Assembly: GCA_963736675.1 (NCBI GenBank)
Contig: CAVTPT010000002.1
Location: 160,358 to 224,357, forward strand
Reading direction: 5' to 3'
DNA: 64,000 nt
DNA from: an uncultured Bacteroidales bacterium
GTDB lineage: Bacteria > Bacteroidota > Bacteroidia > Bacteroidales > VadinHA17
Shown here: in pieces, positions 19,670 to 57,861 of the stretch
How the letters are laid out: the number at the start of each line of letters is the position of its first letter
Position numbering within the stretch: the first letter of the stretch is position 1
Notes under the pieces: generated by a model
What the model saw: the letters and a program-made list of their open reading frames with translations, nothing else
Databases searched by the model: none
What the model was told of the DNA's origin: nothing
Translations under genes and position numbers: made by a program

Positions 19670-19760
19670 AATAATTGATTTTAGTTATGTTTTGAATTGA
19701 TAAATCCATTTTACATGATAAATAAGACTTCTGAAACTGATTTTACAGTCAATCAATATT

Positions 19761-21239: not shown

Positions 21240-21374
21240 AATTTAAAATTTTATAATTTATATTAATCTGTCGTAAGGTGTTTTTTCGAAAGCCTAAAGT
21301 ACTCAAAGTTATTAAATCCTTATCACAAGCAGGATTAACTTTAATCATTTTTTATAATTTTAACTCTTGCTGCT

Positions 21375-22583: not shown

Positions 22584-22728
22584 GATAAATCATTTTTTAA
22601 TTATTACATCTTTAAGCTCAGAATCACTATTATATTAAGCATGTTTTTCCACATATACCTTTTCGTATTCGCGCAATTAAGTACCTTCGTTCACGCCTCA
22701 CGCCTCACGCCTCTATCTTAGTCAATGC

Positions 22729-24071: not shown

Positions 24072-24092
24072 CGTATTTCAGGCATCGACACT

Positions 24093-24830: not shown

Positions 24831-24892
24831 ATCACCTTAATTAGCTGAAACTTATACCACAAATTCATACACCTTGTTACTTCAACCCGACA

Positions 24893-27052: not shown

Positions 27053-27080
27053 AATTTATTGATTTTTTAAAATTTAATTC

Positions 27081-28106
27081 TCACAGTTTTTGTGATGATC
27101 TGCGCACTATCAGGCTATGCTTTAATATGATAGTGCTAAGGTTGCCAGTTCCGGTATTATTCAGCTTGTTTATCAGCGAAGTGGCTGCAATCTCTCCGAT
27201 TTCCCTGGCGGGATAATCGACGGTTGTAAGGGTTGGCTGAACAACGTAACTGATGGGCTCGTTATTAAATCCTACCACGGCTATCTCTTCGGGTATCTTA
27301 ATGCCCGCCTTTTCAAGTTCAACAATTATAGCTACTGCCGAGGTGTCGTTAGACGAAAAAATTGCATCCGGACGCGGGTTCATCTTCATAATTTTTTCGG
27401 CGGTTTCAACACCCGCCTGTTCACTCATATCACAGGAAAATACCAGCGACGGATCAAATGTAATGCCATTATCAGCAAGGGCCTGCCTGTATCCTGCAAA
27501 TCGTCCGGAATATACATTTCGCATGAAATTACCCCCAACATGAACGATTCTTCTGCACCCCTGTGTTATCAGGTGCGACGTAGCCTCATAACCTGCTTTT
27601 ATGTTATCAATTACAACACTCATACAATCGTGGCAGTCGGCAACCCTGTCAAAAAAGATTACAGGAATGTTCTTATTAAAAAGAATATTAAAATGGTCCA
27701 GGTTCCGGGTATCGGATGCAAGAGAAACAAGCAATCCATCGACCCTGCTGTTAAAAAGTGTTGAGATACACGAAATCTCTTTCTTTTCGGATTCCTGCGA
27801 CTGGCTGATAATAAGGCCGTAACCATTCTGGGTGGTGATCTTCTCTATCCCGGCTATGGCCGCTGCCATGAAATAACTATTCAGCCTTGGTACCACAACT
27901 CCGATCGTATAGGTTCGTTCCAGCCGGAGATTGCTGGCAAATTTATTGTGCCGGTAGCCCATTTCGCTGGCAGCACTTCTTATTCTTTTTTTCGTCTCCT
28001 GGCTTATGTGAGGATGGTCCTTTAACGCACGGCTAACTGTTGAAGGTGACAGGTTGAGAGCCTTTGCAACATCGTATATCGTTACTTCCCTTTTTACTCC
28101 GGACAT
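27081..28106 (-). CDS. LacI family transcriptional regulator
   Basis: HTH VTIYDVAKALNLSPSTVSRAL plus a periplasmic-binding-fold body. I prefer ATG 28104-28106 over the TTG-extended track ORF (to 28172), which would run through the operator. Confidence 0.85.
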   Translation of the reverse strand: MSGVKREVTIYDVAKALNLSPSTVSRALKDHPHISQETKKRIRSAASEMGYRHNKFASNLRLERTYTIGVVVPRLNSYFMAAAIAGIEKITTQNGYGLIISQSQESEKKEISCISTLFNSRVDGLLVSLASDTRNLDHFNILFNKNIPVIFFDRVADCHDCMSVVIDNIKAGYEATSHLITQGCRRIVHVGGNFMRNVYSGRFAGYRQALADNGITFDPSLVFSCDMSEQAGVETAEKIMKMNPRPDAIFSSNDTSAVAIIVELEKAGIKIPEEIAVVGFNNEPISYVVQPTLTTVDYPAREIGEIAATSLINKLNNTGTGNLSTIILKHSLIVRRSSQKL

Positions 28107-28167
28107 CCCTCTTTTTTTACCAAAAGTAGTAAATAATGACAGAATATTAAAGGAGAAATGAAATTTC

Positions 28168-28181
28168 TGCAACCGATTGCA
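28168..28181. promoter_or_regulatory. LacI-type operator TGCAACCGATTGCA (copy 1)
   Basis: 14-bp near-palindrome with a central CG, matching the generic LacI/GalR pattern TGnAAnCGnTTnCA. Lies in the divergent lacI-GH67 / GH115 intergenic region. The 15 nt CTGCAACCGATTGCA are identical to those at 41918-41932. Confidence 0.6.
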
Positions 28182-28362
28182 TTATTTTACCTCTTTGGTT
28201 GGATATATAAAATTTAACTCCTATTTTTAACTGATAAATCAGGTTCTTATACTTTGTAATCCTCCTGCGGTCATTTATGACGCCTTGCCACTACATAAAA
28301 AGTTGCTGTATGCGACCGGATCTCATAAATAGAGTAAAGTTAAAAACGTAATAACAATTAAA

Positions 28363-31326: not shown

Positions 31327-31404
31327 CAAATACCTTATAACCGGGTTCTCAAAGGGCAGAGATCAACAAATAAAAAGTGCGAAATAACAAAAACCCGTCA
31401 TATC

Positions 31405-32670
31405 ATGAAAAGAGACTCTTCAAATCTGATCAGGTTAGCTGCAGCATCTGTTTTCAGCTTTTTAAGCCTGGCAGGCTTCCCCCAGAAGATTGCCACCCTG
31501 GAGGTTGATCTTCCTGAACCTGCTTTCGGACTCGAAATTCCCGTGAGCATTAATCTTGATGAGGTGACGTATGTGACTGACTCCCTTTTAGCATTATTTG
31601 AAGTTAAAGGCAGTACCCGTACGCCTGTATCGTTTCAGATAGAACAGGGTGATCAGAGAAGGTTGCACTGGCTGGTGGAAACGGGAAGCGTAGCCGGTGA
31701 AAAACATACTTTTGAACTTGTTCAGGGAAAAGTAAAACAGGCTGAAGTAATAAAAGCAACTGTAAACGATGGAACTCTGACAATCCATAATGGAGATCAG
31801 AATCTTCTCAGGTATTATTTTAAGACACTTTATCCTCCGGAAGGTGTTGATACTGCCTACCGCCGGAGCGGTTTTATTCATCCTTTATGGGCACCGAAAG
31901 GCCAGGAGCTGACAAGAATACAGCCACCCGATCATTATCATCATTATGACATCTGGAATCCCTGGACACATGTTGCCTACGAAGGAGATACTATTGATTT
32001 CTGGAATATAAATTCAAGGCAGGGCACTGTGCGCTTTGCCAACTTCGCCTCCGTTGAGAACGGATCTGTCTTTTCTGAATTCGGAGCTATGCATGAACAC
32101 GTTGTATTCAGAAAGAATGCTCCCGAAAAAGTTGCCATGAACGAACTTCATTCTGTAAGGGTATATCGTCCGCAGAAAAGCCAGGATTACTATATAGTCG
32201 ATTTTAATTTCAGTATGAACTGCGCTGATGAGAGTCCTGTAAAACTTCTGGAATACCGTTACGCCGGATTGGGCTGGAGGACGACAGAAAAATGGGACAA
32301 TAAGAACAGTATGGTACTTACCTCAGAAGGGAAGACAAGGAAAGATGCAGATGGCAGTACAGCACGCTGGTGCATTGTCCAGGGAGAGATTGACGATGAC
32401 TATGCCGGTGTTGTCATGATGTCGTTCCCGACTAATTACAATTTCCCGGAACCTTTGCGTATATGGCCGGAGAATCAGTATAACAGGGGTGATATGTTCG
32501 CAAACTTCTGCCCGACGAAGGATAAAGACTGGCTGTTACAGCCCCGTCGCAACTACACTTTAAAATACAGGTTCCTGGTATATAATGGCCGTATGGATAA
32601 AGATAAGGCTGAAAGTGCCTGGCAATATTTCGCTTATCCTCCTGAAATAACCATAAAAAAAACAAAATAA
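31405..32670 (+). CDS. PmoA-like / DUF6807 family protein (secreted)
   Basis: The HPLWAP...PPDHYHHYDIWNPW motif is typical of the 'methane oxygenase PmoA' (DUF6807) Pfam family. Function unknown. Confidence 0.55.
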   Translation: MKRDSSNLIRLAAASVFSFLSLAGFPQKIATLEVDLPEPAFGLEIPVSINLDEVTYVTDSLLALFEVKGSTRTPVSFQIEQGDQRRLHWLVETGSVAGEKHTFELVQGKVKQAEVIKATVNDGTLTIHNGDQNLLRYYFKTLYPPEGVDTAYRRSGFIHPLWAPKGQELTRIQPPDHYHHYDIWNPWTHVAYEGDTIDFWNINSRQGTVRFANFASVENGSVFSEFGAMHEHVVFRKNAPEKVAMNELHSVRVYRPQKSQDYYIVDFNFSMNCADESPVKLLEYRYAGLGWRTTEKWDNKNSMVLTSEGKTRKDADGSTARWCIVQGEIDDDYAGVVMMSFPTNYNFPEPLRIWPENQYNRGDMFANFCPTKDKDWLLQPRRNYTLKYRFLVYNGRMDKDKAESAWQYFAYPPEITIKKTK

Positions 32671-32907
32671 CCAGTTAAAGAAATAATGAATAAGAACAAT
32701 CCGGTACACCTGAAGCACTTTCTGCGTTACATCGGTAATGGAAATAAGGTTACCCCCCGAAAACGGGTTAACGGCGACGGAGAAGGTTCCATTGCAGAAC
32801 AACATTATCAGATTTTTTGATTAACTTGGATCTCTGCCTTAAAAACCGGAAGGTTTGCTTTTCAAAATCTAAACGATCCAATATATTGTAATTTAATAAC
32901 TTACACT

Positions 32908-34284
32908 ATGAAAAGAAGAAAATTTATTACTAATTCCATTACCGCCGCAGCGGGGACTATAATTATTCCCACAATAATTCCTTCATCAGTTATGGGCAGG
33001 AATCCGCCCAGCGACAGGATCAACATAGGATGGATCGGTTGTGGCAGGCAGGGGACAGGTGATATTTCAGGTACGATGAGGTTTGATTCTGCTATTGTTG
33101 TCGCTGCCTCCGATGTCGATTCAAACAGAATGGCAATTGGGAAACAATTTGTTGAAAGGTACTATGCCAGGCAGACCGGAAAAAGTGACTATGTAAATGT
33201 GAAAACTTTTGGTGACTACAAGGAGATGCTCCTTGATAAGTCAATAGATGCTGTTATGATAACAACTCCCGATCACTGGCATTCACAGCCGGCCATTGAA
33301 GCTGCCCTTGCAGGTAAAGATATCTACCTTGAGAAGCCGACATCACTTACCATCACAGAGGGAAGATTATTAAGCGACGTCATAAAACGTACGAAGGTTA
33401 TACTCCAGGTTGGCACCCAGCAGCGTTCTAGTCCCCAGTGGAGAATAGCCGCCGAGCTTGTAAGAAACGGCAGGATCGGGAAGCTTCACACGGTTAAAAT
33501 AGGACTCCCGGGAGATCCTTCCGGACCAGAAGCACCGGAGATGCCGGTACCCGGGAACCTGAACTATGATATGTGGCTGGGATCGACCCCTGAGGTTTAC
33601 TATACCGAAACACGTGTGCATCCGCAGAATAGTATCAACGATCGCCCGGGATGGCTGAGGTGCGAACAGTTCGGAGCTGGTATGATAACCGGATGGGGAC
33701 AACACCATTTCGATTCAGCGGCATGGGGCATGGATACTGAACTTACCGGCCCTATATCGGTTGAAGCTGTTGCACAGTTCCCCAAATCAGGTTTGTGGGA
33801 TGTTCATGGGGACTTTATGTCAAAAGCCGAGTATAAGAATGGCATTACACTGCTGACAAGTGGTGGCTATCCTAATGGCGTAAGATATGAGGGTACCGAA
33901 GGCTGGATTTTTGTTACCCGTGGGGCATATACTGCTACTGCCAGCGATCCCGTAGTTGTTGACAGCAATGCCAAAGCGCTTGATGCAAGTGATCCGAAGA
34001 TCCTTCAGTCAGTTATCAGTGAAAATGAAACCCATCTGTATGTGAGTGAAAATCAACAGGGCAACTGGCTCGACTGCATCAAGTCGCGTAAAGAACCTGT
34101 TTCTCCGGTCGAAATTGGTCACCGCGCATGTACCGTCTGTCTCGTAACACACATTGCCATGAAGCTTGGCAGAAAGCTGAACTGGGATCCCGATAAGGAA
34201 AGATTCACTGACGACGACGAAGCAAACTCAATGCTTTCACGTCCACAGAGAGCTCCCTACGGGACCAATTATATAAAGATGTAA
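32908..34284 (+). CDS. Gfo/Idh/MocA family oxidoreductase with twin-arginine-type signal
   Basis: MKRRKFITNSITAAAG leader, GWIGCGRQG Rossmann motif and an EKP motif. Confidence 0.85.
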   Translation: MKRRKFITNSITAAAGTIIIPTIIPSSVMGRNPPSDRINIGWIGCGRQGTGDISGTMRFDSAIVVAASDVDSNRMAIGKQFVERYYARQTGKSDYVNVKTFGDYKEMLLDKSIDAVMITTPDHWHSQPAIEAALAGKDIYLEKPTSLTITEGRLLSDVIKRTKVILQVGTQQRSSPQWRIAAELVRNGRIGKLHTVKIGLPGDPSGPEAPEMPVPGNLNYDMWLGSTPEVYYTETRVHPQNSINDRPGWLRCEQFGAGMITGWGQHHFDSAAWGMDTELTGPISVEAVAQFPKSGLWDVHGDFMSKAEYKNGITLLTSGGYPNGVRYEGTEGWIFVTRGAYTATASDPVVVDSNAKALDASDPKILQSVISENETHLYVSENQQGNWLDCIKSRKEPVSPVEIGHRACTVCLVTHIAMKLGRKLNWDPDKERFTDDDEANSMLSRPQRAPYGTNYIKM

Positions 34285-34293
34285 TTTCTCTTT

Positions 34294-35196
34294 ATGAAGA
34301 CAATACTTATAAAATGCCTCCTGATTGCTGGAGGCATTATTATTGCTTTACCAGTAAAAGGGGTAAAGATAAATGCCGAAAAAGTCGGATCGAAGATAAA
34401 TATCACAATAGATGGTAAGTATTTTACCAGCTATATCTTCTCAACTGATGAAAAATATCCCTTTTTCTATCCGGTAAACGGACCCCTTTCAGGCGGCTCT
34501 GTCACTTCAATGCGTAATGCTGTCTACCCTCATCATACATCACTATTTTTTGGTTGCGATATGGTTAACGGAGGTAATTACTGGCAGGAGGGGCTTGAAC
34601 GCGGAAGGATAATTTCTGTAAATGCCCGTGTGGAGAAAGAGGGGGGCGATACTGTAATCATAACAGATGAATGCATCTGGAGCCGACCGGGAGCACTCTC
34701 TCCCATTAAGGATACGAGAAGAATTATTATTACTGCGCCATCTTCAAGTTTAACCCGGATAGATTTCGATATAACCATGGAGATGCTGATGGATGTCCAA
34801 ATCTCAAAAACCAATCATTCTCTTTTCAGTGCCAGGATGGCAGCAGACCTTGCTGTCACAAACGGAGGGACAATGATCAATGCGGAAGGGGCAAAAAGTG
34901 AAAAGGAGACTTTCGGCAAGAACTCGGCCTGGATTGATTTCTATGGCAAAAGGGGTGCAATTACTGAGGGACTGGCAATTTTACAGCATCCGTCCAACCC
35001 CTGGTTCCCCTCACCCTGGTTTACCAGGGACTACGGGTTTATGTCACCTACCCCTATGTACTGGCCTGAAAACGGGGAAGTGACTTTTCTGAAGAAAGGA
35101 AGCAGTCTTAATCTCCGGTACAGGGTACTTGTACATGCCGGAAATAGTGATGAAGCCCGGATAAGTGAGGCATTTGACAAATATTCGAAAGAATAG
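34294..35196 (+). CDS. PmoA-like / DUF6807 family protein (second, shorter)
   Basis: Signal peptide. FFYPVNGP ... HHTSLFFG ... NYWQE pattern of DUF6807. Confidence 0.55.
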   Translation: MKTILIKCLLIAGGIIIALPVKGVKINAEKVGSKINITIDGKYFTSYIFSTDEKYPFFYPVNGPLSGGSVTSMRNAVYPHHTSLFFGCDMVNGGNYWQEGLERGRIISVNARVEKEGGDTVIITDECIWSRPGALSPIKDTRRIIITAPSSSLTRIDFDITMEMLMDVQISKTNHSLFSARMAADLAVTNGGTMINAEGAKSEKETFGKNSAWIDFYGKRGAITEGLAILQHPSNPWFPSPWFTRDYGFMSPTPMYWPENGEVTFLKKGSSLNLRYRVLVHAGNSDEARISEAFDKYSKE

Positions 35197-35320
35197 GGAA
35201 AGTCTATCCGTAACCTTTCAAAAGCCACTGCGGGCGGAGGTGTATGAAAAGTCAATTCTTCCCCTTGAGAATTGAAATATCTGTAAGTACTCCCCGCTGG
35301 AAATACAACTAAAATCAAAA

Positions 35321-35360
35321 AAGAGGCTGTTCTCACCTCTTGAGAAAGCCTCTTTAAATT
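35321..35360. terminator. bidirectional terminator between convergent genes
   Basis: aagaggct ... agcctctt 8-bp stem, flanked by A-rich and T-rich runs. Confidence 0.55.
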
Positions 35361-35378
35361 TTTAATAAACCCTGAGAA

Positions 35379-38063
35379 TTACTGAACCGTAACGAGCGCT
35401 TTAGTAACCGAAGCCTCTTTTGCAGTTCCGTCAAGCTGAGGTTGATGACCACCAACAGCGACAGTAAACTGCCCCGGCAGAATTACTCTTTCATTTTTGT
35501 CGTCAATAACAGAAAAAGCATCTGAAGCAACACGGAAGGAAAGGGTTCTGGTTTCTCCCGGTAACAGATTAACCCTGTCAAAAGCTTTAAGTGTACGTAA
35601 AGCAACCGGGTACTTTGAACCAAGATTTGATACATAGAGCTGAACCACTTCATCGCCGGCCATTTTCCCTGTATTCTTTACATTTACTTTTACAGTTACC
35701 TCATCACCGGCCTTTATTTTCTTACTTACTTTCATCTTGCTGTATTCGAAAGTTGTATAGCTTAATCCGTATCCGAATGGGAATAAAGGATCTCCGGTAA
35801 AATATCTGTATGTACGGTTTTTCATGTTATAGTCCTCGAAATCCGGGAGATCGTCAACCGACTTGTAAAATGTTACAGGCAGACGGCCGGCAGGATTATA
35901 ATCACCGAACAGGATATCAGCTATAGCGGCTCCGCCTTCCTGACCCGGATACCATGCCTCCAGGATAGCAGGAATGTTCTCCTTTTCCCAGTTTATTGCA
36001 ATGGCACTTCCATTAAGCAGTACCAGTACTACCGGCTTGCCGGTGGCATGAATAGCCTTGATAAGGTCCTGCTGTACCGGGGGCAGGTCGATTTTGGTTC
36101 TGTCACCGCCCTTGAACCCTTCTACTGCAACGTTCATCTCCTCCCCTTCCAGTCGAGGGGTTATACCCATGCACATAATTACAACATCAGCCTGTCTGGC
36201 AGCATTTAATGCCTCGTTTTTCATGTTTTCGAAGTATTGTTTCTCAGGTAATGCCCAGAGTAGTTGAACCTGGGCTTCTCCGGAAGTCTCGGAAGCTTCA
36301 ACCCTGAAGTTGTATTTTTTTCCGGCTTCAAGAACAACCGGTTCTGATCTTCTCATCCTTGGATTTCTGTTCTCATCCATCGAAAACGAAGGAGTACTGA
36401 TCAGAAGTGAGTCGCCCATGAAGATCCTGACTTTGCATGAAGAAACGAACCCGATCTGATATGGGCCCGTGAATTCCGGAACAATCTCTCCTGTCCATCT
36501 GATACCGAAATTGTCAACATCCATATCGTCTGTTGGTGCATTTTCTCCCCACTGCATGTCAATTTTGGTGTCGACCCGTGTGAACATGGCATCACCAGTA
36601 AAATCACGGTTGTTAAAATATTCACCTTTTAATCCTCCCCGGGTGCCTTCATTATAAAGGATATTTGAAGGAATTACCTCAAAAACAGGCATGCCGGCGG
36701 CCCATTCGCTACCCCTGGCATAGATAACTTTTGACTTGCCTTCCAGTTTCTCCCTTATCCCTCTGAGGGGTGTTACAGGGTCTGAAGGTGTCCCGTTATA
36801 ATTACCAAGCAGTACAAAATCCTCATCCGAATTGGGGCCAATAACAGCAACGGTGCCGATATCTTTTTTAAGAGGAAGAATGTTATTTTCATTCTTAAGC
36901 AGTACCATTGATTTCAGGGCTGTCTCTTTTGCAAGCAATTTATTTTCCTTGCTGTCAACAACACTGTAAGGGATACTTGTATATTTTACCATTTCGGGAG
37001 GATCAAACATGCCCAACCTGAACCGGGCAATGAACAGCCTTTTTACGGCGGTATCAATTTCCTCTTCGGTAATTAGTTTTTTGCTGACTGCCTCCTTAAG
37101 GTTCCTGTAAACTGATCCGCATTCAAGGTCAGTCCCTGCCCTGACGCTCAGGGAGGCTGCCTCTGCTGGAGTCTGGACAACCTTATGTCCGGCATATATG
37201 TCATTTATTGCCCCGCAGTCGGAAACAATAAATCCGTCAAATCCCCACTCGGTGCGCAGGATACCATCAAGAAGCGATTCGCCTCCGCAGCATGTTACAC
37301 CATTGTAACGGTTATACGCGCACATCACCGAGTATGCTTTTCCCTCTTTTATTCCCATTTCAAACTGAGGGAGATAGGTCTCCATGAAATCCCGCTGATC
37401 AGTGATTGCATCAAAAGAGTGCCTGCCCTGCTCCGGTCCGCTGTGGACGACAAAATGCTTAATGGTTGCTATTGTTTTAAAATATCGGGGATCGTCACCC
37501 TGAAGGCCTCTGATAAACTGCACCCCCAGGCGGCCCGTAAGGAAGGGATCTTCTCCGTAAGTTTCCTGGCCTCTCCCCCAGCGTGGATCCCTGAAAATAT
37601 TAATATTGGGGGTCCAATAGGTAAGTCCCTGGTATCTGGCCCTGGAATCGTTTCTGACAAATTCATGATGCTTTGCCCTTGCCTCATCGGAAATTGCCGT
37701 TGAGACACGGAGTATAAGATCCTCATCCCAGGTAGCGCCCATACCGACAGCCTGGGGGAAAACTGTGGCCAACCCTGCCCGGCCCACACCATGAAGACAC
37801 TCGTTCCACCAGTTATAAACCGGGACACCAAGCCGGTCGATAGCAGGTGCAACATCCAGCATCTGTCCTATTTTTTCGTCGAGGGTCATTCTCGAAACAA
37901 TGTCATCAGCCCGTTGCCCAACGCTAAGATCCGGATTCAGGAAAGGAAACTGATAGGTTTTCTGAGCCATGGATACGATTCCCGGCGATGTCATTAAAAG
38001 TACTGTAAGAACCGATCTGAGGAGCACATTCAATGACCGGCTCATCATTTTTTTATTTTTCAT
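35379..38063 (-). CDS. GH3 beta-glucosidase/beta-xylosidase with PA14 insertion
   Basis: GFIVSDCGA catalytic nucleophile region, a GH3 C-terminal domain, and a PA14-like segment (GEYFNNRDFTGDAMFTRVDTKIDMQW). Confidence 0.9.
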   Translation of the reverse strand: MKNKKMMSRSLNVLLRSVLTVLLMTSPGIVSMAQKTYQFPFLNPDLSVGQRADDIVSRMTLDEKIGQMLDVAPAIDRLGVPVYNWWNECLHGVGRAGLATVFPQAVGMGATWDEDLILRVSTAISDEARAKHHEFVRNDSRARYQGLTYWTPNINIFRDPRWGRGQETYGEDPFLTGRLGVQFIRGLQGDDPRYFKTIATIKHFVVHSGPEQGRHSFDAITDQRDFMETYLPQFEMGIKEGKAYSVMCAYNRYNGVTCCGGESLLDGILRTEWGFDGFIVSDCGAINDIYAGHKVVQTPAEAASLSVRAGTDLECGSVYRNLKEAVSKKLITEEEIDTAVKRLFIARFRLGMFDPPEMVKYTSIPYSVVDSKENKLLAKETALKSMVLLKNENNILPLKKDIGTVAVIGPNSDEDFVLLGNYNGTPSDPVTPLRGIREKLEGKSKVIYARGSEWAAGMPVFEVIPSNILYNEGTRGGLKGEYFNNRDFTGDAMFTRVDTKIDMQWGENAPTDDMDVDNFGIRWTGEIVPEFTGPYQIGFVSSCKVRIFMGDSLLISTPSFSMDENRNPRMRRSEPVVLEAGKKYNFRVEASETSGEAQVQLLWALPEKQYFENMKNEALNAARQADVVIMCMGITPRLEGEEMNVAVEGFKGGDRTKIDLPPVQQDLIKAIHATGKPVVLVLLNGSAIAINWEKENIPAILEAWYPGQEGGAAIADILFGDYNPAGRLPVTFYKSVDDLPDFEDYNMKNRTYRYFTGDPLFPFGYGLSYTTFEYSKMKVSKKIKAGDEVTVKVNVKNTGKMAGDEVVQLYVSNLGSKYPVALRTLKAFDRVNLLPGETRTLSFRVASDAFSVIDDKNERVILPGQFTVAVGGHQPQLDGTAKEASVTKALVTVQ

Positions 38064-42032: not shown

Positions 42033-43559
42033 ATGAAATCAATCTCTGTTATCTTTTTTTTACTGATTTTTAATGCAGGACTGGCACAGAATATTCCTGC
42101 CGGTATCTTCGAATCCTCAGCCGATATTGGTAACCCCCGGATTAAAGGATCTTCCCTGTACGACGCTACTGACCAGAGTTATACTCTTAAGGGAGGCGGT
42201 TACAATATCTGGTTCGAAAGAGATGAATTCCATTATCTGTACAAAAAGATAAAAGGGGACTTTATCATAACGGCAAATTTCGAATTGACCGGGAAGGGGA
42301 CTGAACCTCACAGGAAAACCGGATGGATGTTAAGAGCCTCGACAGAGGAGAACTCAGCGCACATGTCAGCAGTTCTCCATGGCGATGGACTAACTGTAAT
42401 GCAATGGCGTAATTTTAATGGAGCACCGATGAGAGATCCTCAGGATGAATTATTTGCACCGGGATCAGATTATAATGTCATCCAGCTTGAAAGGGCCGGA
42501 AAAATAATAGTGATGAGGGCAGCCCGGGAAGCCGGCCCCCTTGAGACTATAGGATCTTATGAAATGATGACAATGCCGGATGAGATCCTTGCAGGGCTTT
42601 TTATCTGCTCGCATAACCCTGATGTCTCCGAAGAGGTGAGGATCTGGAATGTAAGGATTGACAATCCGGTCAGCAACAGTTATAATCCTTCTGTTGAGGG
42701 CTACCTGGGCTGCAGGCTTGAAACAATGAATGTTTTTGACGGTAAGAGGAGAGTGATCTTTGAAAAAAACAGCAGGTTTGAAGCTCCAAACTGGATGCCC
42801 GACGGCAAAAAACTGCTGTTCAACATGGACGGGCTATTATGGAAAATACCAATCGAAGGAGGTATCCCCGAACAACTTAATACAGGATTTGCAAACAGGA
42901 ATAATAACGATCATGGCATATCATGGAACGGGAAGCTTCTTGCCATAAGTCATCAGCGCGAAGGGATGCCCGGAGGAGGCTCAACTGTATATTACCTGCC
43001 TCTGAAAGGTGGAAAGCCAAAACTCATTTCTGAAGAGACTCCTTCCTACTGGCATGGATGGGCTCCGAACAATAAAGAAGTAATATATATCGGGAACCGG
43101 CAGGGAGATGAAGGATACAATATATTCAGAAATACCCTTAAGGGCAACAAAGAGGTCCGTCTCACCAATGTTAAAGCAAACGAACGTGCAGATGGCTGCG
43201 AGTATTCTCCTGATGGAAAATATATTTACTATAATGGCAGTCATACCGGTCACATGCAGATATGGAGGATGAAGCCTGACGGCACAGAACGCGAACAGGT
43301 AACCTTCGACGGGAATAATAACTGGTTCCCTCATATTTCTCCGGATGGGAAATGGTTAGTATTCATTGCATTTCCTCCGGATATAGAATTGAATTCCCAT
43401 CCTTCATACAAGAGGGTGACTCTGAATATGATGCCTGCTTCAGGAGGAGCCTCAAAGGTTATTGCATACCTCTATGGCGGGCAGGGCACAATTAATGTAC
43501 CTTCATGGTCTCCCGACAGCCAGCAGATTGCTTTTGTTAGCAATTCAGGAAAATATTAA
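42033..43559 (+). CDS. secreted protein: ConA/LamG-like (DUF1349-like) N-domain + TolB-type PD40 beta-propeller
   Basis: Signal peptide. Repeated SPDGK / WSPD PD40 motifs. Paralog of 50645-52162. Confidence 0.55.
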   Translation: MKSISVIFFLLIFNAGLAQNIPAGIFESSADIGNPRIKGSSLYDATDQSYTLKGGGYNIWFERDEFHYLYKKIKGDFIITANFELTGKGTEPHRKTGWMLRASTEENSAHMSAVLHGDGLTVMQWRNFNGAPMRDPQDELFAPGSDYNVIQLERAGKIIVMRAAREAGPLETIGSYEMMTMPDEILAGLFICSHNPDVSEEVRIWNVRIDNPVSNSYNPSVEGYLGCRLETMNVFDGKRRVIFEKNSRFEAPNWMPDGKKLLFNMDGLLWKIPIEGGIPEQLNTGFANRNNNDHGISWNGKLLAISHQREGMPGGGSTVYYLPLKGGKPKLISEETPSYWHGWAPNNKEVIYIGNRQGDEGYNIFRNTLKGNKEVRLTNVKANERADGCEYSPDGKYIYYNGSHTGHMQIWRMKPDGTEREQVTFDGNNNWFPHISPDGKWLVFIAFPPDIELNSHPSYKRVTLNMMPASGGASKVIAYLYGGQGTINVPSWSPDSQQIAFVSNSGKY

Positions 43560-49998: not shown

Positions 49999-50406
49999 AT
50001 GAAAAGGACAATTTTTTTATCTGCCATCGCACTTCTGATAAGTGCAGGCATCTCGGCACAGACCGTCAGTCAGACGCAGGATCAGACTCAGAATCAGGTT
50101 CAGACACAGGCTCAGACAGGTGATCAGTTACGGTCACAGGTTCAGGCCGGGGATATGATTCAGAAACGTACAAGAGCCCATGTGAATCTTCAGGATCAGA
50201 CCGGAACTCAGGACCAGCTGCAAAAAAGGGACCGGATACGTTTACACGATCCCTCACAGGCAATGTCACAATCAGGGAACCAACAGGCCAGGACACGTTT
50301 AAAAGATGCATCATGCGTAAACAGGGCGACAGCAAATGCCGGAATGCGAAACAGCGCAATGCAACGCAGCATGAGAAGCTCTTCAATGTCAGGAGGAAGA
50401 AGGTAG
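49999..50406 (+). CDS. secreted low-complexity Gln/Thr/Arg-rich protein (hypothetical)
   Basis: Signal peptide then QTQDQTQNQVQTQAQTGDQ repeats. Followed by a strong terminator. Confidence 0.4.
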   Translation: MKRTIFLSAIALLISAGISAQTVSQTQDQTQNQVQTQAQTGDQLRSQVQAGDMIQKRTRAHVNLQDQTGTQDQLQKRDRIRLHDPSQAMSQSGNQQARTRLKDASCVNRATANAGMRNSAMQRSMRSSSMSGGRR

Positions 50407-50644: not shown

Positions 50645-52162
50645 ATGAACATTAAAAATCTGTTATTAATAGTCCTGCTGATCTCCCTTTTTTATGAGCC
50701 TTCAGCCGGTCAGAGAATTGGATTATTTACCGGAACTTCGGGAATAGGTGATGTAAAGATAGCCGGCGCTGCTGCCTTTGATGACGACAAACAGGTTTTT
50801 ACCATTTCGGGGGCAGGTTCAGGTACCGGTGGCCAGAAAGATGAATTACAGTATGTCTATCGTAAGCTTACAGGTAATTTTATTCTCAGGGCAAATATGA
50901 AGTTTCAGGGAGTTGAAGGGGCTCCTGAAAAAAAGATAGGATGGATGATAAGACATAGTCTTGAGGCAAATTCGCCGGCTGCTCTGGCGACCGTTCAGGG
51001 CGATGGGAAGGCATTTTTACAATTCAGGGAACTTCCTTCGCTTGACATGGAGTCAAAACTTCTGCCGGTAACAGGTGCTGATGTTATACAACTTGAAAGA
51101 AGGGGGAACTCGATCATTATGTCGGCAGCCATAATGGGAGAAAGATTTTTTGAGGAGCAGGTAACCGGAATTGATCTGGGAGATGAAGTTTATATTGGAT
51201 TATTTGTTTGTTCTGCCAGTAATGAAGCTTCTGAAAAAGCCACTTTCAAAAATGTCAGGGTGATTATTCCTCCCAAAGAAGGATATCAGCCTTACCGCGA
51301 CTATATCGGAAGCCATATAGAAGTTATGGATATCGGAACAGGAGACCGCAGAATAGTATACACTGCCCCCAACTCACTTCAGGCTCCAAACTGGATGATA
51401 GATCCGAACATTTTCACCATAAACAGCGATGGTGTTTTGTATGATTTTGACCTTCGTACAGGGAAACCGTCAAGGATAGAGACAGGAGCAGCAATAAACA
51501 ACAATAACGATCATGTAATTTCCTTCGACGGGAAAAAGATGGGAATCAGCAGTTCGACAAAAGAGGAAAGGCAGTCGGTCATTTTCACAATACCACGACA
51601 GGGAGGAGAAGCTAAGAGGGTCACTGCACTGAGTCCCTCCTATCTTCACGGGTGGTCGCCCGATGGGAAATACCTTGTGTACACAGCCGTAAGAAATGAT
51701 AACTGGGGTATATACAGGATCTCCGAAAAAGGCGGACAGGAAACTGTTCTTACAGACGTTAAAGGACTGAATGACGGACCTGAATATTCCCGCGACGGAA
51801 AATATATCTACTTCAACTCCGACCGGACCGGGACAAGCCAGATATGGCGGATGACACCCGACGGTAAAAATCCCGTACAACTGACATTTGACGAACTTAA
51901 TAACTGGTTTCCGCATATCTCACCCGACGGAAAGTGGATAGTGTTCATTTCGTTTCCCCGGTCTGTACCATCAGGAGACCATCCTTTCTACAAACACGTA
52001 TATATCAGGCTTGTTCCTGTTACAGGCGGTGAAGCCAGGATAGTTGCATATGTTTACGGCGGACAGGGGACAATGAATGTTCCAAACTGGTCGCCCGATA
52101 GTAAAAGTATAGCCTTTGTCAGCAACAGCGATTTCCTCGACTATCAGGCTCCCCGGGAATAA
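50645..52162 (+). CDS. secreted ConA/LamG-like + TolB-type PD40 beta-propeller protein (paralog of 42033-43559)
   Basis: Colinear shared motifs: NNNDH, NNWFPHISPDGKW, YGGQGT.NVP.WSPDS..IAFVSNS. Confidence 0.55.
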   Translation: MNIKNLLLIVLLISLFYEPSAGQRIGLFTGTSGIGDVKIAGAAAFDDDKQVFTISGAGSGTGGQKDELQYVYRKLTGNFILRANMKFQGVEGAPEKKIGWMIRHSLEANSPAALATVQGDGKAFLQFRELPSLDMESKLLPVTGADVIQLERRGNSIIMSAAIMGERFFEEQVTGIDLGDEVYIGLFVCSASNEASEKATFKNVRVIIPPKEGYQPYRDYIGSHIEVMDIGTGDRRIVYTAPNSLQAPNWMIDPNIFTINSDGVLYDFDLRTGKPSRIETGAAINNNNDHVISFDGKKMGISSSTKEERQSVIFTIPRQGGEAKRVTALSPSYLHGWSPDGKYLVYTAVRNDNWGIYRISEKGGQETVLTDVKGLNDGPEYSRDGKYIYFNSDRTGTSQIWRMTPDGKNPVQLTFDELNNWFPHISPDGKWIVFISFPRSVPSGDHPFYKHVYIRLVPVTGGEARIVAYVYGGQGTMNVPNWSPDSKSIAFVSNSDFLDYQAPRE

Positions 52163-52191
52163 AGCAAAAAGCCTGTTCCCGGGCGTTTCAG

Positions 52192-53187
52192 TTATTCTGC
52201 AAGCCTGAATGCCAGTTTGACAGCATTTATCATGCTGTGTTCATCTGCTTTTCCCTGCCATGCAATTTCAAAGGCAGTACCATGATCAACAGAGGTCCTG
52301 ATAACAGGCAGCCCTACCGTAATATTCACACCACTTCTGAATCCCAGAATTTTAAGTGGTATATGACCCTGATCGTGATACATTGCCACGACTACATCAT
52401 ATTTGCCCTGGACTGCCTGAAGGAATACCGTATCAGGCGGTAAAGGCCCGGAAACATCGATTCCTTTCAGTTTCATGTTGCTGACGGCCGGAGCTATCTG
52501 AAGAAGCTCTTCGTTGCCAAACAGTCCGTTCTCACCGGCATGCGGATTAATGCCCGCAACAGCAATCCTGGGCTTTGCGCCCTTTATTCTTGTCATTGCA
52601 TCGTTAGCCAGGGAGATCACCTTTTCGATCCGTTCTCTTTTCAAGCCTGTCACTGCTTCGAAAAGTGAACAATGTGTCGATACATGGATGACACTAAGTT
52701 TTTTGTCGTATAACAGCATGGCATAATCCTTCGTTCCTGTCAGCGAAGCCAGTATCTCGGTATGACCCGGATAATTTTTCCCGGCCAGGTGCAGGGCTTC
52801 CTTGTTAAGAGGCGCTGTAACAATAGCATCAATAAGCTTTTTCTGGGTGAGTTCAACCGCCTTTTTAACTGATTCAAATGCAGCAGCTCCGGAAGAGGCC
52901 ATCACAACTCCTGAGCGGAATAATTTTACATCAACCAGCTGAAGATCCAGTACATTCAAAATGGCTGGTTTAAATTCACACTCCCCGGGATCACTAACTC
53001 TCCTGAGGGTAAATGTTTCTGTCTTCAACAGACCGGCAGCTTTCTGCATAATGCCAAAATCGCCAATCACCAATAGCTGCATGTTCCGGATCTCTTTTCT
53101 TTCAAAGCTTTTTAAAATTATTTCCGGTCCTATCCCTGAAGGATCGCCCATTGTTACTCCTATGATCTTTTTTCTCCTTCCTTTCAT
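52192..53187 (-). CDS. PdxA-family dehydrogenase (PdxA2-like 4-phospho-tetronate dehydrogenase by context)
   Basis: [10 protein letters not shown] motif and the HAGENG / DHGTAF pattern of the PdxA family. 4-nt overlap with the upstream kinase fusion. Confidence 0.8.
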
Positions 53188-55415
53188 TTTTTGCCTTTTT
53201 TAAGAAACAGTAAAACTTTATGGAGTGCCTCTTCATTTCCGAACCCTCCTGCTTTTGTTACAACTATCAAATCTCTGTAACGGTCATCGGCATACCTGCC
53301 GGATGGTATCCCGGGGAGGATTTCATTCTCAATAATGGTCCCGGTAATATTAAGCGATCGTGCCGTTTTAATGGCAGTGTCTCCGCCGGTAAGCAACACA
53401 CTGTTGATCTGAAGATCTCTGATGGAAGATGCTGCAATTTCTCCTATGAAAATGGCTATCGCTTCGCTTACATGGTACCTGTCAAGTCCCAGCCGGAGGC
53501 CCTTCTCAAAACAGGCTGTCACCTCAGCCGGGTCAGACGCACTTCTGATAATGATATCCTCACCCCTGGAACATAAGTCCCTGGTTATTCTGAGGATCCT
53601 CTCCCGCTCCTCCTTTTTGCTCTTCTCACCTGAAAACAGTTTGAGGGTATCGATGTCGATCAGATTTATTTCCGAATTGTTCTTTACGTATTCTATTTGT
53701 TGCCTGGTAATTTCGCTCACGCTACCCGCGATTATAAGATTGCTTTTTTTACTCTTTTCAAGGTTAAGATGATCCGGAAGATAATCTGCCAGACCTGAGG
53801 AACCGGCATAAAGGAACCTCTCATCAAGAGAGGTAACTGCAGAAGCGATAATATCAAGATCTTCCGTCTCCTGAACATCTGCTACAAAAATATGAACTCC
53901 ATTTTTGATATGCTGCCTGATCACTTTTTGAAGATTTTCTTTACCTGCGCGCACTTCGCTGTAACTGACAACCGCCGTCTTCCTGTTCGTCTGAGCTGAA
54001 ATTACTGCAGGAATATATGATTCTTTAACGGGTGTTTTTGGATCCCTCCCTGTCTCTGTCTCTTCAAGCAGGACTCCTTTTACATAAAGTGAACCATCAA
54101 GTATCGTACGTCCATATTCAGGCAGGGCCGGAACAACAACAGCATAACTTATGTCCATGGAGTCCATCAGTCCTGATATTTCAGCGCCAATATTACCACG
54201 AAGGGTTGAATCAATTTTTTTATAAATACATTTTAATTTCTTATCCTTTAAAGCTCTCCCGGTTTCATACACTTTGCGGTATGCAGTGTCGCGGTCGTCT
54301 GACCTGCTCTCTGTGTCAACCACCAGCACGTCATAACCGGCAAGCGATCTCTCTATATTCTTAATGTCGGTGATCACGATACTGCTCAGGTCCCTTTTGC
54401 TGAACTGAACAGCTGTGTCGCCTGCTCCTGTCAGATCGTCAGCAACGATAACGATCTTGTTACCGGTTTCAAATTCAGGTTGTTCCTGAACAGTTTTGCT
54501 GGTCCTTTTCCTTCTTCCTGCAATAAATGTTGTGAGCAACGGGGTAAGGATAGCTGTTGTTATAGTTGAGGCAGCTATCTGTGGGGCAGCTATTTGGGCC
54601 AAAGCTGCGAAGGAAGGATCGGTCATGGCGACAGCCGAAGGTGTGGCAACCGCATTCCCGGCAGTACTTGATGCCGCAGCTCCTGCTACTCCACTTCCAC
54701 CTGTCGAGATATCTGCCAAAATGTTAAAGATACCGCCGATGAAAGTTGTCATTACGCCAAGAACGATTCCCGCCAATCCGGCTACCAATAGCATTTTGAG
54801 ATCAATGCCTGTCCCCAGTGCAAATGCAAAGAAGGGGATCAGAACAGGTCCTCCCGACATAAGGAATTTCTTCATCTCACCGTCAAGGTTCCCAAGGATC
54901 ATTCCTATGACAATAGGTATGAGTACTCCGATAAGACTGTTCAGGGGAATGGTTGCAATTCCTGCTGCTCCCAGAGCGATCATGGTAAGAAAAGGACCAT
55001 CATTCAAAGACAGGATGGCAATTGCTCCAACATCTGTCTCATCGCCCATTTCACCGACAAGTGCAGCATATAGGCCTCCGTTGCTGTTTGTCATTGCAGC
55101 AATTACCGCCAGCGATGAGAGTCCCAACCAGCCTGCCCTGGATATAACAAGACCTAGGGCTACTCCTACTATAAACTTTGTAAAGGTAATCACAGCTCCC
55201 TTCTTCAGTGCCCTGGGCGCTGCCCTTAAGCTTATACCAGCCCCCATACAAACCAGAAAAACTCCTATCAGTGCTGACGATCCTGTTGCAATGGCAGTTG
55301 TAAATCCACCTATCTTCAGTGCCTGCGGAGAAACTGTGTTTATCAGAGCGCCAACTATCAGGGGAAGTATCATCATCCCTCCCGGAATCCTTTCAATACT
55401 CTTTTTCAGGTTCAT
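53184..55415 (-). CDS. fusion protein: KdgT-type 2-keto-3-deoxygluconate permease (N, about 320 aa) + DUF1537 four-carbon acid-sugar kinase (C, about 420 aa)
   Basis: The N-terminus [23 protein letters not shown] matches the KdgT family start and multiple TM segments follow. After a basic linker (GRRKRTSK), [17 protein letters not shown] is the DUF1537 N-terminal signature. Confidence 0.75.
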
Positions 55416-55432
55416 CAGTTAAGAAATTTTTG

Positions 55433-57586
55433 TCAGGGAGTATAAGTTGCTTTAATGGCTATCTCAATATCGTTTGCCACCTCTGGTCTGATCAAAGCCC
55501 AGTGGAAAAGATTGTCATCGTTCCTGTCGTAGCTGCTTCCGTTGTAATGTGTTAAAGGCATATCCCTGTAAATCGGTCTTGTTATTTTAATAACCTCATC
55601 CCAGAAATCAAGAGCTTTCTGAAGATGACCGATTGCCTCCTGCCTGTTATCCTCTCCTCCCTCAAGACGAAATTTCTGCAATGCGACAGCGCCCCTCAGC
55701 TTTTCAGCAAGATGAAGCCCCAGGTTGGCCCATGTCCTGACGTCAGCCACCTCATACATAAGAGAGGCATTATTTCCGGTATATATATTCCGTACCAGTC
55801 TGAGAGCTTGCCGGCACTCCCTCTCAAGCAATATTGAAAGCTCCGGAGGGGTCATCTTATGGTCTTCAAAACTGCCTCCCGAACCAGTTATTTCGACATA
55901 ATTCCTTACAGAGATATAATCAGGATCGAGAGGAGGCTGGGAGATCAGCCTGTCAACCGGAATATATCTTGTTTTATCGCCTATAAGAGCCATGAACCCT
56001 TCACCATAGAGGGTAAAATCCCATCCCGAATCGTATAATGAAGCCAGGCGCAACTGTGTCGACGAAGCAAGCGAGTATGCCTTCAGAAGGTTCCCTGCAG
56101 CATTGCCATAACGTCGTATAAATTCAGCTTTAAATACTTCATCGGGAGTGCCAGGATCATATAACAATCTTCCCCAGAGCTTATAAAAGAGCCATTGCCT
56201 TTCAAATGCAAATTTCCAGTCAACGGGTTCCGTGACCGCGGTAAAATAATCCAGGGCTGGAATATAGGTTTCGGAGCCGATAAAATAACCGCCTACATAA
56301 CTCCTGCTGTTTTCTGCGATATGTGCACGGACGAAAGAAGGCACTCCCCACCGAAGAGCAAAAAAATCCTCATTACGGGCAGTATAGGTAATCTTATAAC
56401 CTTGCGGTTCAGGATTATAAAAGGTATCGAACATCTTTCCGCCATGTACCTTTACAAGTTTGGGAGTGGAGTGTGCATGCGACCAGTTATATTTCAGATC
56501 AGCCCAGACAGGACCCTTTATAAAGTCAAGGCCGGCTTCTCTTTCAATTGCGTTCCTCGTAAGTCTTTCGAGGTCAACACTTGTTGCCCCAAGCGATTCG
56601 GTGGTGCTCGAAAAAGGTATCCGGTGCACCAGCTTGGTCTGACGGCCGGCAAGTCTCATCCCTTCAATATACGTATCGAACATCCAGTCTTCCCTTTCCT
56701 GTGGTGACATCCCTGCCATACCCTCGCCGAGAGTAAGTCCGAACCCTGTCAGCCCGGGGTACTCTTTTAATACCTGTGTAACACTCTCGCGCATATATCT
56801 CTTTACTATTTCAGATGTATCTCCCTGGCAGTAATAGTGCGGGTAAAAATTTGTAAGGGCTACATTATATGCTTCTGAAAACTCCGGACTTACGAATATG
56901 TTAAAAGGTATAATATAAGTATCAATAGCCCTTTCTGACGCCATCCTGAAAATTTCACGATGGAAACTCTTCCACTCCTCCATTTCCTTACTGTCAAAAG
57001 GACTTGCTTCAGGGAAATTCTCCGGTGTTATCATGTAAACAAATGGATGAAGATTAAACAGAGAGAGGGAATTAAAACGATTCCCGGCCATCATGTCCAG
57101 AAATGCTTCCCAGTAATTCAGATCCTTCACAGTTTCGAAATGCTGGTCAATTGCCGAGCTGGGCCGGTACGAATACCAGGGGGTGTTATGCTTGATCGCC
57201 CTCAGTGCAAAATGTGGTTTCCCGCTGCTTTGTTCAGCATTTTCCAGCTTTATTCCATTCCCCAGATCTTCACATAATGAAAGTGCGCCATATATCATGC
57301 CGCGCCGGTCGCCTCCTGTGATCGTTATATTTTTCGCATTGACCGTGATCGAATAGGCCTCTTCCCCCAGATTAACCGTATCTGTTGTAATACTTATCCT
57401 GAATGCACAATCCTGTTCTCCCGCTGCAACAGAATAGGAATTTTCAATCAGTGCGTCTTTCAGCCTGCCTGCAGCATATTGAGCCTGAGGCATTAATTTA
57501 TCAAATAACAAACAGACATCCTGTGAAAAACACAGACTACAGGCTCCTGTTGCACTTATCAGAAGAGTAAATAGAAGCTTTTTCAT
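55433..57586 (-). CDS. secreted putative glycoside hydrolase of unassigned family (zincin-like N-domain + TIM-barrel-like body)
   Basis: Signal peptide. The segment GGDRRGMIYGALSL resembles the N-domains of GH20/GH67/GH115-type enzymes. The remainder has no family motif I can name. Confidence 0.35.
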   Translation of the reverse strand: MKKLLFTLLISATGACSLCFSQDVCLLFDKLMPQAQYAAGRLKDALIENSYSVAAGEQDCAFRISITTDTVNLGEEAYSITVNAKNITITGGDRRGMIYGALSLCEDLGNGIKLENAEQSSGKPHFALRAIKHNTPWYSYRPSSAIDQHFETVKDLNYWEAFLDMMAGNRFNSLSLFNLHPFVYMITPENFPEASPFDSKEMEEWKSFHREIFRMASERAIDTYIIPFNIFVSPEFSEAYNVALTNFYPHYYCQGDTSEIVKRYMRESVTQVLKEYPGLTGFGLTLGEGMAGMSPQEREDWMFDTYIEGMRLAGRQTKLVHRIPFSSTTESLGATSVDLERLTRNAIEREAGLDFIKGPVWADLKYNWSHAHSTPKLVKVHGGKMFDTFYNPEPQGYKITYTARNEDFFALRWGVPSFVRAHIAENSRSYVGGYFIGSETYIPALDYFTAVTEPVDWKFAFERQWLFYKLWGRLLYDPGTPDEVFKAEFIRRYGNAAGNLLKAYSLASSTQLRLASLYDSGWDFTLYGEGFMALIGDKTRYIPVDRLISQPPLDPDYISVRNYVEITGSGGSFEDHKMTPPELSILLERECRQALRLVRNIYTGNNASLMYEVADVRTWANLGLHLAEKLRGAVALQKFRLEGGEDNRQEAIGHLQKALDFWDEVIKITRPIYRDMPLTHYNGSSYDRNDDNLFHWALIRPEVANDIEIAIKATYTP

Positions 57587-57861
57587 AATATCCGGAGTTA
57601 GTTTTTTATGAAATTACCAGGTAAAATTTTCCTCAAATAGTAGTAGTAAAAATCTGAATTCAATTTAGTGATATTTTAATTATGAAGTGATAAAAATATG
57701 TTCAGGACTGGAGCCTGCTGATAAAGTCGAAGCTGATGAAAAGGCCAGGGGAAAAATCGGGAAGCTATCTGTTTTATTCAACTCATCTGACTCTACTTAA
57801 GACAATTTTTTTATCTTTATTCACTCTTAATGCAGAACAAATTTAAAATACGGAGGACAGG

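Follow-up and report, generated by a model that had tools for sequence, protein, structure and literature searches.

DtnK and DenK are kinases of the DUF1537 family (PMC10971088), and a D-threonate kinase together with a 4-phospho-D-threonate dehydrogenase converts D-threonate to dihydroxyacetone phosphate (DHAP) (PMC10079672). PdxA2 is the paralogue of PdxA that serves organic-acid catabolism (PMC9997740). A KdgT-family permease of Ralstonia eutropha H16 had been described as a D-threonate importer; expressed separately, it works with separately expressed enzymes, and slow acid-sugar uptake was reported as a limitation in that study (PMC10079672). The trio of permease, kinase and dehydrogenase is an experimentally validated, known module. 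We have analyzed a 64,000-nucleotide (nt) stretch of DNA from an uncultured Bacteroidales bacterium (contig CAVTPT010000002.1; hereafter the window), in which the permease and the kinase are joined in a single polypeptide of 743 amino acids (aa) encoded just upstream of a PdxA2-type gene; the novelty of the locus lies in this fusion alone. With a probability of roughly 0.6, the two genes form a cassette for the catabolism of a four-carbon acid sugar (D-threonate or D-erythronate being the likeliest), in which the tethered kinase traps the imported substrate.

Architecture of the fusion and its PdxA2 partner

The fusion gene occupies positions 53184..55415 on the minus strand and is an uninterrupted open reading frame (ORF) with three Pfam domains. 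The N-terminal part is a KdgT permease domain (PF03812, TC 2.A.10; residues 4-299, 54519..55406, minus strand) of the BART/CPA-AT fold, with ten helices and both termini predicted inside; it scores 367.1 bits against a cut-off of 25 and covers model positions 2-303 of 305 (E = 1e-109). The C-terminal part consists of the two halves of DUF1537, both on the minus strand: the substrate-binding domain SBD_N (PF07005; residues 321-546, 53778..54455), with 214.3 bits over model positions 1-230 of 230 (E = 2.5e-63), and the nucleotide-binding domain NBD_C (PF17042; residues 560-731, 53223..53738), with 111.7 bits over positions 1-168 of 168 (E = 7e-32) and with TGGDTA and TKAGGFG motifs. Since the three models are covered almost in full, all three domains are complete. 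Between permease and kinase lies a linker of about 20 residues (300-320, 54456..54518, minus strand) that is basic at its membrane end.

The earlier note on this DNA, made from the letters alone, had described a complete permease joined to a complete kinase, and the alignments bear this out. In the Bacteroidota clade of fusions introduced below, the last permease helix (...AILTPxLTAFIAKRxK) is intact and is followed by the linker and then by the kinase start, ADDxTGxxDT. The linker is hydrophilic, variable in sequence and 16-24 residues long across the clade. The two discontinuous-helix motifs of the permease are strictly or nearly invariant, unfused relatives included. The kinase half, SBD_N among it, aligns end to end with the solved DUF1537 structures 4xfm, 1yzy and 4xfr and keeps the family blocks ADDxTGxxD, KKxDSTxRGN, TGGxT and KAGGFG as invariant columns.

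KdgT-family permeases have the topology 8H-2BH-Nin, i.e., eight helices plus two that are broken, and an N-terminus that faces inward (PMC8396727). In the permease half of the fusion, ten segments are hydrophobic or helical, and under a ten-helix model the mean number of lysines plus arginines is 14.3 inside (9.1 without the linker) versus 1.3 outside (n = 18 fusions). Since an N-in topology with ten helices puts the C-terminus, and hence the kinase, in the cytoplasm, the family topology and the positive-inside bias together predict a cytoplasmic kinase domain. An acidic loop (residues 121-128) was considered as an external segment and rejected, since it falls on the cytoplasmic side under the ten-helix model. 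When the whole fusion was modeled with AlphaFold, the predicted local distance difference test (pLDDT) value was about 90 in the kinase half, 30-50 in the permease half and below 50 in linker residues 301-317, with an overall predicted template modeling score (pTM) of 0.48. We regard this model as uninformative for both topology and docking.

The 331-aa gene that follows the fusion (52192..53187, minus strand) overlaps it by 4 nt, as had been noted: the ATGA at 53184-53187 holds both the stop codon of the fusion and the start codon of the downstream gene. The product is a member of the PdxA family (PF04166, E = 5e-106). It scores 379 bits against 6e85 and 378 bits against 2hi1, which are solved D-threonate-4-phosphate dehydrogenases (PdxA2), and only 186-191 bits against the canonical PdxA structures 1ps6, 1ps7 and 1r8k. 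Judged by these scores it is of the PdxA2 type rather than canonical PdxA, in agreement with the original assignment, and it is a putative oxidative decarboxylase of 4-phospho-D-threonate or 4-phospho-D-erythronate; the D-erythronate route via PdxA2 is listed as EC 1.1.1.409. A PdxA gene was found downstream of the fusion in all 16 loci with downstream sequence, the window counted.

Distribution and origins of the fusion

A search of 5.8 billion proteins retrieved the same three-domain architecture in more than 100 distinct clusters at 90% identity. Their members are 726-754 aa long, 55-67% identical to the query, come from NCBI, JGI, ENA and Logan assemblies and all fall in one Bacteroidota clade, the nearest named relatives being Bacteroidales and Rikenellaceae metagenome-assembled genomes (MAGs). 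The fused ORF is uninterrupted in the 24 loci that were retrieved. Because the architecture is conserved across independent assemblies, the fusion is genuine and not an assembly artefact. The permease half is conserved throughout the clade with a mean identity of 80%, indicating strong purifying conservation. A scan of reference genomes with a single protein query retrieved 2 loci.

The permease-kinase fusion is therefore not absent from public databases, where it is annotated as a permease only; the source names of the clusters, where given, are "2-keto-3-deoxygluconate permease" or "transporter", and such a name misses the kinase entirely. It is probably wrong about the substrate as well. 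The permease half scores 259.5 bits on TIGR00793, the equivalog model of the 2-keto-3-deoxygluconate permease, below the cut-off of 453.8, and the permease encoded beside the Salmonella-type DtnK scores likewise (252.9 bits); the name thus appears to be an over-transfer. No description of a transporter-kinase fusion or of a KdgT-DUF1537 fusion was found in the open-access literature searched.

The architecture is rare. When 1.84 billion representatives clustered at 50% identity were searched exhaustively with HMMER, the Bacteroidota clade was reduced to one cluster. The only other full-length fusion among the top 150 matches is P0245 (742 aa, 35% identical), in which all three domains are complete according to Pfam; the remaining matches in this set are stand-alone kinases or stand-alone permeases. 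About 20 clusters make up the lineage headed by P0245, and one of these derives from an Acidobacteriaceae MAG. In this Acidobacteriota lineage the fusion is also followed by PdxA with a 4-nt overlap, and its linker is only about 12 residues long. Directly upstream of the Acidobacteriota fusions (L094 4798-9245 and L095 4414-9227), 3 nt away in L094, is a gene for a class I/II aminotransferase.

Neighbor-joining trees with 50 bootstraps were built separately for the permease and kinase halves. The Bacteroidota lineage was monophyletic in 50 of 50 bootstraps of the permease tree and in 4 of 50 of the kinase tree; in the latter, monophyly fails only because of the L010 kinase, which derives from the fusion by deletion of the permease and groups among the fused kinases. 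The Acidobacteriota lineage was monophyletic in 50 of 50 bootstraps in both trees, and the two lineages taken together in 0 of 50 in both. Identity between the lineages is 43% in the permease half and 24% in the kinase half; the Bacteroidota fusion shares 71-75% and 48%, respectively, with its nearest unfused relatives. These trees show that the fusion arose at least twice, independently in Bacteroidota and in Acidobacteriota, which suggests that it brings a functional advantage.

About 22 of 95 loci contain unfused KdgT>kinase>PdxA operons, and others hold the same three genes in different orders. The nearest unfused relatives of both halves sit in KdgT>kinase>PdxA loci: L059, L066 and L073 are among the nearest for both halves, and L033 for the kinase half. 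This is what is expected if adjacent genes were fused in place, and the fusion probably arose when, in an ancestral KdgT>kinase>PdxA2 operon, the stop codon that separated the permease gene from the kinase gene was lost.

Several other candidates were examined and rejected. The L009 locus, considered as a frameshifted fusion, has an unfused kinase-PdxA-KdgT arrangement. The enterobacterial proteins P0111 and P0112, considered as a further fusion lineage, result from a 1-nt frameshift and a 186-nt in-frame deletion, respectively. In L005 the authentic permease C-terminus is found in the +1 frame, with a stop codon immediately ahead of the ATG of the kinase gene; hence P0111 represents a frameshift read-through in which the last permease helix is lost. 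Both lesions (L005 8001-10208, L006 6001-8019) affect the Salmonella-type D-threonate locus between acnB and speDE, where the wild type has separate genes for the permease, kinase, PdxA2 and DeoR. Lesions of this kind in single enterobacterial assemblies create false "fusion" proteins in databases. Likewise, P0115-P0120 were considered as ancestral unfused kinases and turned out to be contig-truncated or permease-deleted derivatives of the fusion: P0118 is cut by the contig end, P0115 (L010 1360-2799) keeps a remnant of the last helix only, and in P0117 and P0120 the first residues of the permease (MNLKKNIER or MNLKNN) are joined directly to the linker and kinase. The permease-deleted members may have truly reverted to a soluble kinase, or else they reflect faulty assembly of short contigs.

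The GH138-like protein and the surroundings of the cassette

Upstream of the fusion, on the same strand, lies a gene for an exported 717-aa protein (55433..57586, minus strand); the 17 nt (caaaaatttcttaactg) between its stop codon and the ATG of the fusion agree with the gap originally reported. The GH20/GH67-like N-terminal domain described in the earlier note is also seen in Pfam, as a GH20b match of 37.6 bits and a sub-threshold GH67N match (GH, glycoside hydrolase family). The same note could place the protein in no family, which has to be revised. Among solved structures, the GH138 alpha-D-galacturonidase BPa0997 is nearest to it in sequence, found with 78 bits by a single-sequence search and 137 bits by a profile search, with matches that cover residues 9-312 and 453-673. 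An AlphaFold model of the 717-aa protein (pTM 0.87) consists of a GH20b-type N-domain, a TIM barrel and a helical C-domain, and Foldseek aligns it over the full length with the GH138 structure 6hzg at template modeling (TM) scores of 0.74 (query) and 0.76 (target), E = 2e-27 and 17% identity; GH84, GH67 and GH20 folds reach TM scores of only 0.45-0.5. On NF049878, the NCBI galacturonidase model, the protein scores 110 bits against a cut-off of 1300, over residues 66-311 only. We conclude that it has a full-length, highly diverged GH138-like fold, as predicted by modeling, and that its sequence falls short of the GH138 family model. The CLGE(294)AIG segment of BPa0997 corresponds to TLGE(288)GMAG, which is invariant in the 717-aa family; the Glu361 segment is not aligned by sequence, and an E361S mutant of BPa0997 is named in a PDB title. 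We take Glu294 and Glu361 to be the catalytic carboxylates of BPa0997.

The family of the 717-aa protein is large (2,615 hits, Bacteroidota) and is known in the sources only as "GH20 zincin-like fold domain-containing". Most of its members are unlinked to the cassette: the gene stands alone in Rufibacter and elsewhere is found beside GH9, GH127 and SusD genes. It lies upstream of the fusion in 8 of 22 scorable loci. A gene for an exported PD40/Tricorn-like beta-propeller protein of 505 aa, convergent with the operon in the window (50645..52162, plus strand), shows a matching distribution: where downstream sequence is available, it occurs in 6 of 6 loci that contain the GH gene and in 0 of 4 that lack it; the orthologues in L003, L004, L014, L015 and L092 are 74-84% identical. 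From these counts it follows that the GH138-like and PD40/Tricorn-like genes are an accessory pair of one sub-clade. The suggestion that the 717-aa protein releases the substrate of the kinase from a polymer accordingly finds no support, given the minority of fusion loci that carry the gene and the prevalence of its family elsewhere.

In L036 (7974-12440), L040 (5721-12184) and L044 (2634-6292), stand-alone KdgT permeases, 64-67% identical to the permease half of the fusion, adjoin GH138-like proteins of 731-1118 aa that are 22-23% identical to the 717-aa protein; no kinase or PdxA was detected at these three loci. They constitute a second, independent link between KdgT-family permeases and GH138-like enzymes. 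Genes of the enolase superfamily, RraA-like genes and aldo-keto reductase genes are found near the cassette in relatives. In L092 (2777-7834), the closest long relative, the GH138-like gene is directly preceded by three radical-SAM genes, one of them with a B12-binding domain, and by a 374-aa gene with a faint acetyltransferase match; an SBF-family carrier gene and an enolase-superfamily gene follow further upstream. This block is missing from the window.

For the ecology of polysaccharide-degrading Bacteroidota with this cassette, points of interest are the source of the D-threonate or D-erythronate and the reason for the company of a GH138-like enzyme in one sub-clade. One speculative source is 3-deoxy-D-lyxo-heptulosaric acid (Dha), a sugar of rhamnogalacturonan II: its aldol cleavage would give pyruvate and a threo four-carbon aldehydo-acid, which could be reduced to D-threonate.

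The window as a whole is a region for utilization of hemicellulose and uronic acids, with GH115 and GH67 alpha-glucuronidases, GH3, a GH51-like arabinofuranosidase, a LacI regulator, an enolase-superfamily dehydratase and an FGGY kinase. The part at 18344..38063 resembles a glucuronoxylan or uronic-acid cluster and holds the FGGY kinase, the dehydratase, GH67, LacI and GH115 genes, two DUF6807 proteins flanking a GFO/IDH/MocA oxidoreductase, a GH3 protein with a PA14 insert and a xylose-isomerase-like TIM protein with a weak, sub-threshold Pfam match. The PD40/Tricorn-like gene that faces the cassette, whose product has a signal-peptide-like N-terminus, lies about 8 kb from a second such gene (42033..43559, 508 aa); the two are probably paralogues. 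An ORF of 135 aa (49999..50406) with a signal-peptide-like start and a highly repetitive body rich in Gln, Thr and Asp (QTQDQTQNQVQTQAQTGDQ...) is overlapped by a 106-aa ORF on the other strand and may not be a real gene.

Regulatory elements of the operon could be proposed only tentatively. A short GC hairpin (52171..52184), followed on the minus strand by TTTTTGCTTT, lies between the convergent PdxA2 and PD40 genes and is suggestive of a terminator, in a region where 10 terminator-like sites were observed versus 5.0 +/- 2.4 expected. The -7 promoter motif of Bacteroidota is TAnnTTTG, and TAAATTTG (57838..57845, minus strand), 252 nt upstream of the ATG of the GH138-like gene, fits it and might be the promoter of the operon; the motif shows no enrichment in the window (34 matches versus 55.6 expected). 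A scan for sigma-70 promoters gave chance-level results in the window, the sigma-70 model being ill-suited to Bacteroidota.

Proposed function and alternative explanations

In the scheme that we propose, the N-terminal KdgT-family carrier would import the acid sugar by secondary transport, and the DUF1537 kinase, held at the last helix of the carrier by the flexible linker of about 20 residues, would phosphorylate the 4-hydroxyl with ATP as the sugar reaches the inner face of the membrane. The translationally coupled PdxA2 would then oxidize C3 with NAD+ and decarboxylate the product to DHAP and CO2. The likely benefits of the fusion would be a 1:1 stoichiometry, a membrane-localized kinase and immediate trapping of the imported substrate. 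The analysis establishes the architecture and its conservation, the two independent origins, the linkage to PdxA2, a predicted location of the kinase in the cytoplasm and the integrity of the family motifs; the identity of the substrate, the coupling ion and any kinetic advantage of the fusion are inferred.

The assignment of a four-carbon substrate comes from best matches and genomic context. Of the NCBIfam models, that of the D-threonate kinase matches the kinase half best, with about twice the score of the 3-oxo-tetronate kinase and about five times that of the apionate-pathway kinase (67 bits). The permease half and PdxA are 66% and 54% identical, respectively, to the proteins that flank the curated DtnK in a Salmonella-type locus. 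As to the chemistry stated in the earlier note, the conversion of D-threonate to DHAP is the part that stands on published work (PMC10971088, PMC10079672).

Several observations weigh against this assignment or the scheme. The kinase half scores 343.5 bits on the DtnK equivalog model NF047819 and PdxA scores 425 bits on the equivalog model NF002891, below the cut-offs of 450 and 583, which is why the identity of the substrate has to rest on best match and context. The NF047819 model, however, is specific to Gammaproteobacteria: unfused operon kinases from outside this class score 358-397 bits and fused ones 320-381 bits, and the Salmonella-type kinase passes the cut-off with 663 bits. Also against the assignment, the kinase half shares no more than 33-48% identity with unfused operon kinases, and the AlphaFold model, poor in the permease half, yielded no interdomain geometry. 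An exported glycosidase, presumably co-transcribed with the cassette, is hard to square with a free four-carbon acid as the substrate. The aminotransferase gene of the Acidobacteriota operons hints at an amino-acid-like substrate or product there, e.g., 4-hydroxythreonine. Finally, the existence of P0117 and P0120, in which the permease is deleted, means that the kinase alone may be functional too.

One alternative explanation keeps the architecture and changes the substrate: a different, possibly larger or branched, sugar acid would be freed by the GH138-like enzyme from a plant cell-wall glycan, and PdxA2 would carry out an analogous oxidative decarboxylation of a beta-hydroxy acid. The GH138-like gene, 17 nt from the fusion in the window, even overlaps it by 11 nt in L003, both GH138 and the related GH67 fold comprise uronidases, and the surroundings are a glucuronoxylan and uronic-acid region with GH115, GH67, GH3 and GH51-like genes. 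The enolase-superfamily and RraA-like genes near the cassette in relatives, the KdgT permeases beside distant GH138-like proteins at L036, L040 and L044, and the equivalog cut-offs that kinase and PdxA miss point the same way. We nevertheless consider a different substrate possible but unlikely, since the GH138-like gene is missing at 14 of 22 fusion loci and its family occurs mostly elsewhere, the two-fold lead of the D-threonate kinase model and the low score on the apionate-pathway model favor a four-carbon acid, PdxA is close to PdxA2 of the Salmonella D-threonate locus, and the DtnK model gives similar scores to fused and unfused operon kinases. Salvage or detoxification of 4-hydroxy-L-threonine, which would be imported, phosphorylated to 4-phosphohydroxy-L-threonine and passed by PdxA2 to pyridoxal-phosphate synthesis, is quite improbable. 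The Salmonella DUF1537 kinase STM0162 does phosphorylate 4-hydroxy-L-threonine (PMC10971088, PMC7954711), PdxA2 is able to catalyze the PdxA reaction and may replace an absent PdxA (PMC9997740), the PdxA of the window is above the cut-off of the generic model TIGR00557 (368.8 versus 290.35 bits), and an aminotransferase gene precedes the Acidobacteriota fusion. However, this activity is regarded as promiscuous and PdxA2 is assigned to organic-acid catabolism (PMC9997740), the KdgT-family substrate that was tested is an acid sugar (PMC10079672), and a high-capacity carrier-kinase in an operon with a glycosidase, within a polysaccharide-utilization region, fits carbon catabolism better than vitamin salvage.

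The remaining alternatives concern the fusion itself. The earlier note had called the arrangement "group-translocation-like", and in true vectorial phosphorylation, a group translocation outside the phosphoenolpyruvate (PEP)-dependent phosphotransferase system (PTS), the substrate would enter the cytoplasm only as a phosphate ester. The covalent 1:1 link between permease and kinase, the shortness of the linker in both lineages and the functional advantage that two origins suggest would all suit such a mechanism. If it were true, the carrier would be effectively unidirectional and driven by ATP, and the two origins would reflect selection for coupling. Yet unfused permeases and kinases are common, the R. 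eutropha permease works with separate enzymes, permease-deleted derivatives exist, and a disordered state is predicted for the variable linker, with no confident packing between the domains at a pTM of 0.48; the notion is thus a conjecture that we hold to be improbable, and tethered metabolic trapping is the more economical explanation. That the fusion is an artefact or a pseudogene produced by a sequencing error, a frameshift or a deletion is hardly credible: lesions like those of P0111 and P0112 do occur in Enterobacteriaceae, but more than 100 Bacteroidota clusters from independent assemblies have an intact last helix, linker and kinase start, all in frame, and the permease half is under strong purifying conservation.

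The fusion and PdxA2 would together be a two-gene cassette that leads from an external four-carbon acid sugar to DHAP. As Rosetta-stone evidence, the fusion indicates that the KdgT-family permeases of these operons carry the substrate of the kinase. It also offers a simple natural system for gauging whether a kinase at the exit of a transporter improves capture or makes transport dependent on phosphorylation.

Comparison with known systems

The permease, kinase and PdxA2 of the cassette in the window belong to the three protein families, and follow the gene order, of the D-threonate module of R. eutropha H16 and Salmonella. It differs from the Salmonella-type module in that the permease and kinase are a single polypeptide and no DeoR regulator gene is adjacent, and identity between its kinase half and the kinase of the Salmonella type is only about 33%. 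A fusion of DUF1537 with PdxA was recorded as a clue behind the assignment of the kinases (PMC4921024, Table 4). We found such fusions in P0371 (767 aa) and P0444 (786 aa), in a cluster of 9 members on contigs of up to 2.1 Mb. Like the permease-kinase polypeptide, they are Rosetta-stone fusions of consecutive steps of the same pathway; they join two soluble enzymes, whereas in the fusion of the window one of the partners is a membrane carrier. With both kinds of protein, a fusion is on record for each pair of neighboring genes in the operon.

The exported 717-aa protein shares the three-domain fold of the GH138 enzyme BPa0997/BT0997 of rhamnogalacturonan-II degradation and is about 170 residues shorter; the likeness in sequence is confined to the N-domain, the helical domain at the C-terminus and, within the barrel, its first half.

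With the PTS the fusion has in common that a membrane permease is physically linked to a phosphorylating activity. The PTS is driven by PEP through a phosphorelay via EI, HPr and EIIA/B and couples transport to phosphorylation obligatorily, whereas the fusion combines a secondary-transporter fold with an ATP-dependent kinase unrelated to EII domains, and no PTS domains were found among the profile matches of the proteins of the locus. On present evidence it involves no new biochemical principle and is a recurrent natural fusion of a transporter with an enzyme. Metabolic trapping by a facilitator or carrier together with a cytoplasmic enzyme that modifies the solute is known from PnuC and NadR, which are separate proteins. 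In Acr3-ArsC of Mycobacterium, the partner enzyme is likewise fused to a carrier of the BART superfamily, to which KdgT also belongs; there, reduction is coupled to efflux, whereas the fusion in the window would couple uptake to phosphorylation.

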